Source: Escherichia coli (GTDB lineage: Bacteria; Pseudomonadota; Gammaproteobacteria; Enterobacterales; Enterobacteriaceae). From it: a stretch of DNA of 64,000 nucleotides. The translations under genes and the position numbers were made by a program. Positions 26,154-36,037 of this stretch are shown piece by piece. The stretch lies in NCBI RefSeq assembly GCF_003334315.1, contig NZ_QOWR01000003.1; one strand, 5' to 3'. Within the stretch, counting starts at the first letter, position 1, and each line of letters begins with the position of its first letter. The notes under the pieces were generated by a model, which saw only the letters and a list, made by a program, of their open reading frames with translations, made no database searches and was not told where the DNA came from.

Positions 26154-29100
26154 AAATTCTCAGCCTGCGCCTGAAAAACCTGAACTCATTAAAAGGCGAA
26201 TGGAAGATTGATTTCACCCGCGAGCCGTTCGCCAGCAACGGGCTGTTTGCTATTACCGGCCCAACAGGTGCGGGGAAAACCACCCTGCTGGACGCCATTT
26301 GTCTGGCGCTGTATCACGAAACTCCGCGTCTCTCTAACGTTTCACAATCGCAAAATGATCTCATGACCCGCGATACCGCCGAATGTCTGGCGGAGGTGGA
26401 GTTTGAAGTGAAAGGTGAAGCGTACCGTGCATTCTGGAGCCAGAATCGGGCGCGTAACCAACCCGACGGTAATTTGCAGGTGCCACGCGTAGAGCTGGCG
26501 CGCTGCGCCGACGGCAAAATTCTCGCCGACAAAGTGAAAGATAAGCTGGAACTGACAGCGACGTTAACCGGGCTGGATTACGGGCGCTTCACCCGTTCGA
26601 TGCTGCTTTCGCAGGGGCAATTTGCTGCCTTCCTGAATGCCAAACCCAAAGAACGCGCGGAATTGCTCGAGGAGTTAACCGGCACTGAAATCTACGGGCA
26701 AATCTCGGCGATGGTTTTTGAGCAGCACAAATCGGCCCGCACAGAGCTGGAGAAGCTGCAAGCGCAGGCCAGCGGCGTCACGTTGCTCACGCCGGAACAA
26801 GTGCAATCGCTGACAGCGAGTTTGCAGGTACTTACTGACGAAGAAAAACAGTTAATTACCGCGCAGCAGCAAGAACAACAATCGCTAAACTGGTTAACGC
26901 GTCAGGACGAATTGCAGCAAGAAGCCAGCCGCCGTCAGCAGGCCTTGCAACAGGCGTTAGCCGAAGAAGAAAAAGCGCAACCTCAACTGGCGGCGCTTAG
27001 TCTGGCACAACCGGCACGAAATCTTCGTCCACACTGGGAACGCATCGCAGAACACAGCGCGGCGCTGGCGCATATTCGCCAGCAGATTGAAGAAGTAAAT
27101 ACTCGCTTACAGAGCACAATGGCGCTTCGCGCGAGCATTCGCCACCACGCGGCGAAGCAGTCAGCAGAATTACAGCAGCAGCAACAAAGCCTGAATACCT
27201 GGTTACAGGAACACGACCGCTTCCGTCAGTGGAACAACGAACCGGCGGGTTGGCGTGCGCAGTTCTCCCAACAAACCAGCGATCGCGAGCATCTGCGGCA
27301 ATGGCAGCAACAGTTAACCCATGCTGAGCAAAAACTTAATGCGCTTGCGGCGATCACGTTGACGTTAACCGCCGATGAAGTTGCTACCGCCCTGGCGCAA
27401 CATGCTGAGCAACGCCCACTGCGTCAGCACCTGGTCGCGCTGCATGGACAGATTGTTCCCCAACAAAAACGTCTGGCGCAGTTACAGGTCGCTATCCAGA
27501 ATGTCACGCAAGAACAGACGCAACGTAACGCCGCACTTAACGAAATGCGCCAGCGTTATAAAGAAAAGACGCAGCAACTTGCCGATGTGAAAACCATTTG
27601 CGAGCAGGAAGCGCGCATCAAAACGCTGGAAGCTCAACGTGCACAGTTACAGGCGGGTCAGCCTTGCCCACTTTGTGGTTCCACCAGCCACCCGGCGGTC
27701 GAGGCGTATCAGGCGCTGGAGCCTGGCGTTAATCAGTCTCGATTACTGGCGCTGGAAAACGAAGTTAAAAAGCTCGGTGAAGAAGGTGCGACGCTACGTG
27801 GGCAACTGGACGCCATAACAAAGCAGCTTCAGCGTGATGAAAACGAAGCGCAAAGCCTCCGACAAGATGAGCAAGCACTTACTCAACAATGGCAAGCCGT
27901 CACGGCCAGCCTCAATATCACCTTGCAGCCACTGGACGATATTCAACCGTGGCTGGATGCACAAGATGAGCACGAACGCCAGCTGCGGTTACTCAGCCAA
28001 CGGCATGAATTACAAGGGCAGATTGCCGCGCATAATCAGCAAATTATCCAGTATCAACAGCAAATTGAACAACGCCAGCAACTACTTTTAACGACATTGA
28101 CGGGTTATGCACTGACATTGCCACAGGAAGATGAAGAAGAGAGCTGGTTGGCGACACGTCAGCAAGAAGCGCAGAGCTGGCAGCAACGCCAGAACGAATT
28201 AACCGCGCTGCAAAACCGTATTCAGCAGCTGACGCCGATTCTGGAAACGTTGCCGCAAAGTGATGAACTCCCGCACTGCGAAGAAACTGTGGTATTGGAA
28301 AACTGGCGGCAGGTACATGAACAATGTCTCGCATTACACAGCCAGCAGCAGACGTTACAGCAACAGGATGTTCTGGCGGCGCAAAGTCTGCAAAAAGCCC
28401 AGGCGCAGTTTGACACCGCGCTACAGGCCAGCGTCTTTGACGATCAGCAGGCGTTCCTTGCGGCGCTAATGGATGAACAAACACTAACGCAGCTGGAACA
28501 GCTCAAGCAGAATCTGGAAAACCAGCGCCGTCAGGCGCAAACTCTGGTCACTCAGACAGCAGAAACGCTGGCACAGCATCAACAACACCGACCTGACGAC
28601 GGGTTGGCTCTCACTGTGACGGTGGAGCAGATTCAGCAAGAGTTAGCGCAAACTCACCAAAAGTTGCGTGAAAACACCACGAGTCAAGGCGAGATTCGCC
28701 AGCAGCTGAAGCAGGATGCAGATAACCGTCAGCAACAACAAACCTTAATGCAGCAAATTGCTCAAATGACGCAGCAGGTTGAGGACTGGGGATATCTGAA
28801 TTCGCTAATAGGTTCCAAAGAGGGCGATAAATTCCGCAAGTTTGCCCAGGGGCTGACGCTGGATAATTTAGTCCATCTCGCTAATCAGCAACTTACCCGG
28901 CTGCACGGGCGCTATCTGTTACAGCGCAAAGCCAGCGAGGCGCTGGAAGTCGAGGTTGTTGATACCTGGCAGGCAGATGCGGTACGCGATACCCGTACCC
29001 TTTCCGGCGGCGAAAGTTTCCTCGTTAGTCTGGCGCTGGCGCTGGCGCTTTCGGATCTGGTCAGCCATAAAACACGTATTGACTCGCTGTTCCTTGATGA

Positions 29101-34831: not shown

Positions 34832-34871
34832 TTATTTCACGGGATGAACGTTAAGTATAGGCGCTCGAAAA

Positions 34872-35396
34872 TCAACAATTGATCGTCTGTGCCAGGGCGC
34901 TGCGAATTTCAGAAATCACCTGGCTGGGTTCGTTTGTTGCGTCGATGATAATATGCGCAACTTCGCGATATAGCGCATCGCGTTCTTCCAGCACTTCCTG
35001 AACTTCTTCGCTCAGCGGTTTTCCCGTTAAGGTTGGCCGTAAATCTTCTTCCGGTGCAGCTTGCAGTCGGTTAACCAGGACTGATACTGGCGCACACAAA
35101 TAAACCACGATCCCGTTATTTTGCATGAAGTGACGATTAAATTCCGTCAGAATAATGCCGCCGCCTGTAGCGATAACGGTGGATGGCGCAGTTACCGCTT
35201 CCAGCGCCGCCGTTTCTCTGGCGCGAAATCCCGCCCACTCTTCCCTTTCGACGATCTCCGCGACCGTCATATTGAGCTGTGATTGCAACCACTGATCGGT
35301 ATCGACAAACCGACGGTTAAGCGAATCGGCAAGGGCCATTCCGACCGTTGTTTTACCACAGCCCCGAGGCCCGATCAGAAAAAGAGGTTGTGTCAT
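34872..35396 (-). CDS. aroL: Shikimate kinase II
   Basis: 174-aa [29 protein letters not shown]... (Walker A). Confidence 0.95.
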
Positions 35397-35459
35397 CGTG
35401 GGTTTTCCCCAATAGGTCGCAATGCGGCGAAAGCCGGTGTCATGAGAATAGCGATCATA

Positions 35460-35577
35460 CCATCAAACTAGTACAATTTCGATTGTAAAGGAAAAATTCC
35501 ACTTAAAGTGAAAATCTCAATACACCCCTTACTATACCAATAAATATTCAAGAATGAAGTGTAAATAATAAATTACA
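35460..35577 (-). promoter_or_regulatory. aroL control region: TyrR boxes and TrpR-like operator
   Basis: Strong TyrR box TGTAAATAATAAATTACA at 35560-35577, weaker TGTAAAGGAAAAATTCCAC at 35484-35502, ACTAGTAC (TrpR core) at 35467-35474; aroL is known TyrR/TrpR regulated. Confidence 0.55.
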
Positions 35578-36037
35578 TTTGGCCGCGACTACGTTGCACT
35601 TCCAGCCACCATTTCTCCAGCTCCGCAGCAAAGGCCTGGCGGTCACGTTGTGAAAGACTATCTGGTCCGCCGGTCTGGATCCCACTGGCACGTAAGGTAT
35701 CCATAAAATCGCGCATCGTCAGGCGCTCACGAATGGTCGCTGGCGTGTAACGTTCGCCGCGCGGATTAATCGCCGCAGCGCCTTTCTCGATGGCTTCAGC
35801 AGCCAAAGGTATATCTGCGGTGATCACCAAATCGCCCGCTTCACACTGCCGGACAATTTCGTTATCGGCAACGTCGAAACCTGCCGCGACGCGCAGCGTA
35901 CGAATAAATCGCGATGGCGGCACGCGTAAACTCTGGTTTGCTACCAGTACCAGCGGCATCTGCATACGTTCCGCCGCGCGATACAAAATCTCTTTAATTA
36001 CATTGGGACACGCGTCGGCATCCACCCAAATTGTCAT
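35573..36037 (-). CDS. yaiI: UPF0178 protein YaiI
   Basis: ORF track 35573..36157 trimmed to ATG 36035-36037 ([31 protein letters not shown]...), 152 aa. Confidence 0.9.

Follow-up and report, generated by a model that had tools for sequence, protein, structure and literature searches.

The interval studied here lies between yaiI and aroL in the window, by which we mean the whole 64,000-nucleotide stretch of Escherichia coli DNA that was analysed. Both genes are on the minus strand, and the TyrR and TrpR motifs upstream of aroL are therefore to be read on that strand; yaiA and aroM also lie on the minus strand in the window. The identities of aroL and yaiI, proposed in a first-pass annotation from the sequence alone, were confirmed by annotation. 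The 1.6 kb around the aroL operator matched 5426/5426 complete E. coli genomes, many at 100% identity, with proC, yaiI, aroL and yaiA as the genes annotated in the matches, and the gene order proC< yaiI> aroL> yaiA> aroM> was constant at every locus with genes called. The K-12 coordinates of yaiI and aroL are 405764-406222 and 406405-406929, respectively. The features of the interval, with distances given relative to the start of the curated promoter aroLp (P1) or of a candidate second promoter (P2), are as follows.

35573..36037, minus strand: yaiI (DUF188) coding sequence, long allele of 154 codons, from open reading frame and annotation
35560..35577, minus strand: TyrR box 3, TGTAATTTATTATTTACA, one mismatch, G-N14-C kept, centre -45.5 and span -54..-37 from P1
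35531..35539, minus strand: P1 extended -10 element, TGGTATAGT, from the sequence, with TGnTATAGT in 28/28 genomes
35523, minus strand: P1 transcription start (G) with a 127-nt leader, from Kim 2012, Cappable-seq and Mendoza-Vargas
35507..35524, minus strand: TyrR box 2 (weak), TGTATTGAGATTTTCACT, four mismatches, G-N14-C kept, centre +8.5 and span -1..+17 from P1
35484..35501, minus strand: TyrR box 1, TGGAATTTTTCCTTTACA, two mismatches, centre +31.5 and span +23..+40 from P1, centre -46.5 from P2
35454..35482, minus strand: P2 candidate from a promoter scan, TCGAAA (35482..35477), 17-nt spacer and extended -10 element TGGTATGAT (35462..35454)
35457..35474, minus strand: TrpR operator, GTACTAGTTTGATGGTAT, left half perfect, span +50..+67 and centre +58.5 from P1, span -28..-11 and centre -19.5 from P2
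35446, minus strand: P2 transcription start with a 50-nt leader, from Cappable-seq (405579 in U00096.2)
34872..35396, minus strand: aroL (shikimate kinase II) coding sequence, the regulated gene, from open reading frame and annotation

The aroL promoter-operator of K-12 (Lawley and Pittard 1994; DeFeyter et al. 1986; Heatwole and Somerville 1992) is the same locus: its motif arms, its two -10 elements and its TrpR site are all identical to those of the window, and it has the same start site as that assigned here. Five substitutions separate the window strain from K-12 in 251 aligned bases: a T-to-C change falls in the N6 spacer of box 1, and the other four are in yaiI, where one converts the stop codon TAA to CAA and three are silent. 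We consider it close to certain that the interval serves as promoter and operator of the aroL-yaiA-aroM transcription unit, with TyrR boxes bracketing P1 and a TrpR operator. This control region is already known and long studied, and its overlap with yaiI is an allele-specific accident. TyrR and TrpR repress aroL, TyrR with tyrosine and TrpR with tryptophan (PMC5343134; PMC3473263); aroLM belongs to the TyrR regulon of Enterobacterales only and to the TrpR regulon of a few close relatives (PMC5343134). The region is an instance of textbook combinatorial repression in aromatic amino acid biosynthesis that, beyond annotation, matters little; strains engineered for production of shikimate or aromatics routinely have it deleted or rewired. 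What is now set for this strain are the exact coordinates of the three TyrR boxes, the TrpR site and the start sites. A full-text literature search for the box and operator sequences gave no match, and the best hit of an Rfam scan of the region was ssnA, a sub-threshold chance match at 14 bits against a gathering score of 37.

TyrR boxes were scanned with the consensus TGTAAA-N6-TTTACA, an 18-bp palindrome. The two matches that the first-pass annotation had placed upstream of aroL are boxes 3 and 1, found where it had put them with one and two mismatches; box 2 (35524..35507) is a third box, absent from that annotation. The G at position 2 and the C at position 17 are kept in all three boxes, and across genomes the G and C of G-N14-C are invariant in boxes 3 and 1; these positions of the TyrR box are held essential. 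The centres of box 2 (35515.5) and box 1 (35492.5) lie 23 bp apart, which is the spacing of a weak/strong pair. Comparison with published aroL operators, suggested earlier as a check, returned the same sites: a position-weight-matrix scan lists these three TyrR sites and the TrpR site for aroL, with GGTGTATTGAGATTTTCACT as the site for box 2 (PMC2760140, supplement 6). Genomic SELEX likewise lists AroL as a TyrR target (PMC5791370), and knock-down of tyrR derepresses aroL (bioRxiv 10.64898/2025.12.20.695731). Elsewhere in the window there are two more matches to the TyrR consensus with two mismatches each, at 27094-27111 (AGTAAATACTCGCTTACA) and 58339-58356 (TGTAGAACGTAATTTACC), a number that chance predicts.

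Transcription from P1 is assigned on the basis of three datasets, all of which place the primary 5' end 7-8 nt downstream of a TGn-TATAAT-like element; the sequence holds no good -35 hexamer for P1. Kim 2012 gives an aroL start at 405502 (U00096.2) with 136 reads and a 127-nt 5' UTR, the listed upstream sequence ending in ...TGGTATAGTAAGGGGTG; aroL lies at 405629..406153 in that dataset, giving an offset of +776 to current K-12 coordinates. Cappable-seq reports aroL starts at 405502 and 405579 (U00096.2), and Mendoza-Vargas 2009 lists a start at -127 as the 'Known' sigma 70 promoter aroLp with the -10 element GGTATAGT (PMC2760140, supplement 3). With aroLp mapped to 35523, the centre of box 3 therefore falls at -45.5, that of box 2 at +8.5, that of box 1 at +31.5 and that of the TrpR operator at +58.5. 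The literature found on the aroL promoter consists of engineering and CRISPRa papers that use the single unnumbered name aroLp, which implies one curated promoter.

The TrpR operator consensus is a dyad of two CTAG-containing half-sites, GTACTAGTT-AACTAGTAC. In the window, the left half is a perfect GTACTAGTT and the right half, TGATGGTAT, matches 4/9 positions. The core reads ACTAGTAC on the plus strand at 35467-35474, equivalent to GTACTAGT on the aroL strand (35474..35467), so the TrpR-like core noted upstream of aroL in the earlier annotation holds up, and a TrpR matrix site has been published there: AATTGTACTAGTTTGATGGTATGA scores 16.32, against 20-21 for trp (PMC2760140). The CTAG is kept in the yaiI-aroL spacer of Salmonella (PMC5337935). 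A single-cell CRISPRi and reporter study from 2025 detected no effect of trpR knock-down on aroL (bioRxiv 10.64898/2025.12.20.695731), and the TrpR contribution may therefore be small or condition-dependent. Among E. coli promoters, mtr shares with aroL the combination of TyrR boxes and a TrpR operator, but there TyrR activates and TrpR is the dominant repressor, whereas TyrR is the dominant repressor at aroL (bioRxiv 10.64898/2025.12.20.695731).

We examined conservation in aroL upstream regions gathered from six Escherichia lineages, 18 Citrobacter and Winslowiella, with further loci obtained via protein homologues (a Salmonella-like locus encoding a 181-aa AroL, Intestinirhabdus, Enterobacter, Kosakonia, Lelliottia and Phytobacter). 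A set of 28 sequences comprised Escherichia, Citrobacter, Salmonella-like and Intestinirhabdus loci. Box 3, TGnTATAGT, box 1 and TGnTATGAT occur in every one of the 28, and GTACTAG in 27/28; boxes 3 and 1 are spaced 74-76 bp apart, and box 3 lies a constant 38 nt from the TG of P1. Majority-base frequency was highest in the arms of box 3 (0.99, with 11/12 columns invariant, the best-conserved block), followed by P2 TGnTATGAT (0.98), the left half of the TrpR operator (0.97), P1 TGnTATAGT (0.96) and the arms of box 1 (0.92); it was 0.86 in the 3' coding sequence of yaiI, 0.60 in the arms of box 2 and 0.58-0.77 in the spacer between motifs. These conserved blocks in a drifting spacer indicate that the motifs are under selection, box 2 much less so. 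Beyond Escherichia and the C. amalonaticus group, box 2 shows poor conservation, and box 1 of the Salmonella-like locus is a perfect TGTAAATTATTATTTACA. Only one of the 28 sequences, that of C. sedlakii, is without the GTACTAGT half-site; it reads CTACGCATT and keeps GGTGGTATGAT. The Enterobacter and Phytobacter loci are also without the GTACTAGT site, in agreement with a TrpR regulon confined to a few close relatives (PMC5343134).

In Enterobacter, Lelliottia, Kosakonia (two loci) and Phytobacter, the distal part of the spacer differs (loci L045, L048, L046/L050 and L049, respectively), and the place of box 3, P1 and box 2 is taken by an adjacent pair of TyrR-like boxes (AGTAAAGTTAAC...TGCAATGATTTCTTTACA) with a spacing of 23 bp. 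The aroL start mapped in K. pneumoniae (Kim 2012) lies directly after such an adjacent TyrR-like pair.

Transcription from P1 proceeds via the extended -10 element TGGTATAGT from the start at 35523, with the three TyrR boxes bracketing the promoter: box 3 abuts the -35 region, the weak box 2 covers the start site and box 1 lies downstream. On the basis of the literature, TyrR dimers are expected to occupy the strong boxes. With tyrosine and ATP, the TyrR hexamer would also engage the weaker box, bridging box 3 to boxes 1 and 2, and the bridged hexamer would enclose the promoter and keep RNA polymerase out. TrpR with tryptophan would add a smaller measure of repression from the TrpR operator, and the 5-nt overlap between box 3 and the end of yaiI, a product of the stop-codon substitution in this lineage, would carry no regulatory meaning. 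Lawley and Pittard are said to have described in 1994 (J Bacteriol 176:6921) an aroL region with three TyrR boxes and one TrpR site, in which boxes 1 and 3 are reportedly essential, box 2 dispensable and helical phasing required. The poor conservation of box 2 (0.60), the high conservation of boxes 1 and 3 and the fixed spacing fit that account. RNA polymerase is blocked at aroLM by hexameric TyrR, tyrosine being the ligand that converts TyrR to the hexamer (PMC10170061). The aroF-tyrA operator is similar in that it has three TyrR boxes, an adjacent strong and weak pair plus a distal box, and in that a tyrosine-dependent TyrR hexamer excludes RNA polymerase (PMC10170061). It differs in layout, since at aroL the adjacent pair follows the start and the single strong box precedes the -35 region. 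The aroF operator is not known to contain a TrpR site.

The second start, at 35446, lies inside the operator array; it is outside the classical model and counts against it. An alternative that would supplement the main explanation is that box 1 and the TrpR operator act first and foremost as operators of P2 (TGGTATGAT, start 35446), a reading that we regard as a serious possibility but not the favoured one. TrpR bound over -28..-11 would occlude the -10 region of P2, and box 1 at -46.5 would mirror box 3 at -45.5 from P1. The TrpR effect reported at aroL would then reflect P2 becoming visible only once P1 is shut; Heatwole and Somerville reportedly found in 1992 that TrpR affects aroL only in tyrR+ cells. 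At trp and aroH, the TrpR operator overlaps the core promoter, the usual promoter-occluding position. The aroL site takes this position relative to the candidate P2 (-28..-11); relative to the curated P1, in contrast to trp and aroH, it lies at +58.5, and its right half-site is degenerate (4/9).

Several observations point to P2 as a promoter. The sole hit of the promoter scan within the yaiI-aroL spacer was TCGAAA-17-TATGAT preceded by TG (35482..35454), the TGGTATGAT element of which is conserved and overlapped by the TrpR operator. A start for this element was predicted at about 406354 (K-12) before any look-up, and the Cappable-seq start at 406355, which is window position 35446, agreed within 1 nt. 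This start (405579 in U00096.2) has a relative read score of 7.35, against 4.74 for P1, and a triphosphate enrichment of 3.87. Mendoza-Vargas 2009 independently lists a 'New' start at -53 (window 35449, 3 nt off) with the hexamers CAATCGAAA-17-GGTATGAT (PMC2760140), and either mapped 5' end (35446 or 35449) is 7-8 nt downstream of the TGn-TATAAT-like element. The same P2 hexamers were chosen by Shimada 2014 under an RpoD holoenzyme SELEX peak that is spacer-wide (PMC3946193).

Conservation lends further weight to P2. TGnTATnAT is kept in 28/28 genomes as well as in Kosakonia and Lelliottia, where the box, GTACTAGT and -10 module is equidistant from the ATG in a locus with a different upstream region. 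Across genera the -10 element reads TG(G/A)TAT(G/C/T)AT, varying only in the base after TG and in the fourth base of the hexamer, where a -10 element tolerates change. The right TrpR half-site never shifts toward CTAG, and C. sedlakii is without ACTAGT but with GGTGGTATGAT. The distance from box to TG is also alike, being 38 nt at P1 and 39 nt at P2.

Against this, the P2 start is absent from Kim 2012, which has 136 reads at P1; read numbers for P2 are low, and Cappable-seq calls some 16,000 weak starts. Contacts with TrpR alone could explain the conservation of GATGGTAT, the start base is a pyrimidine, and the trpR knock-down had no detectable effect on aroL (bioRxiv 10.64898/2025.12.20.695731). 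More tentatively still, aroL may have a pair of extended -10 promoters in tandem, 77 bp apart and each served by a TyrR box centred near -46; the TrpR site would then be the operator of P2 and not a +58 site for P1. In such an arrangement, box 1, the TrpR site and P2 would together form the module with the widest conservation in the region, extending to Kosakonia and Lelliottia. If true, tandem promoters would explain why a TrpR effect was reported only when TyrR shuts P1, and a conserved second start under the TrpR operator could revise the view of how TrpR acts at aroL. Authors using curated databases write of an unnumbered aroLp, and P2 therefore appears uncharacterised, though it is present in supplementary lists. 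An origin of the box 3-P1 and box 1-P2 segments by tandem duplication was considered and rejected: the inter-motif segments resemble each other at chance level (2614/5000 shuffles reach the score), so the two modules are alike in motifs only and give no evidence of duplication.

The first-pass annotation held that the best TyrR box overlaps the last codons of yaiI. An overlap is real, but this wording slightly overstates it, as the shared segment is only 5 nt, made up of the stop codon TAA (35575..35573) and two bases of the final Met codon. The window yaiI ends ...CGC GGC CAA ATG TAA where K-12 reads ...CGT GGC TAA A TGTAAT, so that the K-12 stop ends 1 nt before box 3. The TAA-to-CAA change adds two codons (Gln-Met) to the window yaiI (35581..35573; K-12 locus L001:2218-2226), and the overlap of yaiI with box 3 is therefore due to this substitution in the lineage. 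The exact 49-nt window junction was found in 979/5427 E. coli records. An identical strain is annotated with a yaiI of 465 nt and K-12 with one of 459 nt; all five sampled genomes that differ at the junction (O157:H7, ST131 and three others) have the 459-nt form. In other species the yaiI stop lies at varying short distances upstream of an unchanged box 3. Judging from these comparisons, box 3 is the constrained element, with the yaiI overlap a strain-specific and incidental accident.

This bears on the proposal that TyrR at box 3 modulates read-through from yaiI into aroL and that the overlap is functionally meaningful, which we consider improbable. A search of 35300..35750 for a terminator between the two genes, in the form of a GC-rich hairpin and T run, found none, and read-through from yaiI is therefore plausible. 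It could also matter, as the yaiI start (404966 in U00096.2) has a Cappable-seq score of 6.45, similar to those of the aroL starts, and a TyrR hexamer on three boxes would be a plausible roadblock. However, the overlap is confined to a minority allele, and yaiI terminates 1 nt short of the box in K-12, O157:H7, ST131 and the other strains sampled, which tells against the overlap as a designed feature. The distance from stop to box varies among species while the box is invariant, and a DNA-bound repressor cannot sense codons. The SMRT-Cappable-seq supplements, consulted for junction transcripts, make no mention of aroL, yaiI or yaiA.

A final alternative holds that chance alone produced the motif matches in an AT-rich spacer. 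Single-motif counts are within expectation for 64 kb: one TyrR match with one mismatch or fewer was found against 0.18 expected (15/100 shuffles reach it), four with two mismatches or fewer against 2.4, and one GTACTAGT (35474..35467) against 0.46, so that single motif counts are not significant alone. Two TyrR boxes within 120 bp, in comparison, arose in 34/5000 permutation shuffles, and two TyrR boxes with a nearby GTACTAGT in 0/5000; the motif cluster, unlike the single motifs, is significant, and conservation is decisive. With this clustering, with the motifs being the most conserved blocks across genera and with aroL a documented target of TyrR and TrpR, the chance reading is already refuted and retains practically no probability.

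Other observations concern the spacer and the genes around it. The yaiI-aroL spacer (35397..35572) is marked by Shimada 2014 with an H-NS binding site and an RpoD holoenzyme site (PMC3946193). Kim 2012 lists a weak antisense start (4 reads) at window position 35485 on the plus strand, inside box 1 and directed toward yaiI; its -10 element would be TACAAT at 35472-35477, flanking the TrpR half-site. In the aroL leader, a short GC hairpin at about 35431..35416 keeps its place from genus to genus, 12-15 nt before the ribosome-binding site, in the forms TCGC-cgcatt-GCGA in E. coli, CCGC-N6-GCGG in Citrobacter and an 8-bp stem in Kosakonia. As a conserved structure this hairpin was too weak to claim, having four consensus pairs and a covariation term of -0.05. 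For GcvB on the CA-rich aroL start region, the published assay gave mild activation independent of R1 and no firm base-pairing.

Finally, yaiA has a start of its own at window position 34847 on the minus strand, with a Cappable-seq relative read score of 719, about 100 times those of the aroL starts. This start falls in the aroL-yaiA spacer, 25 nt before yaiA; its -10 element is TATACT at 34859..34854, and the promoter elements lie inside the 3' end of aroL. With a start of this strength, yaiA is mostly transcribed alone and not from the aroL promoter. Kim 2012 reports a different, weak yaiA start with a 58-nt leader.
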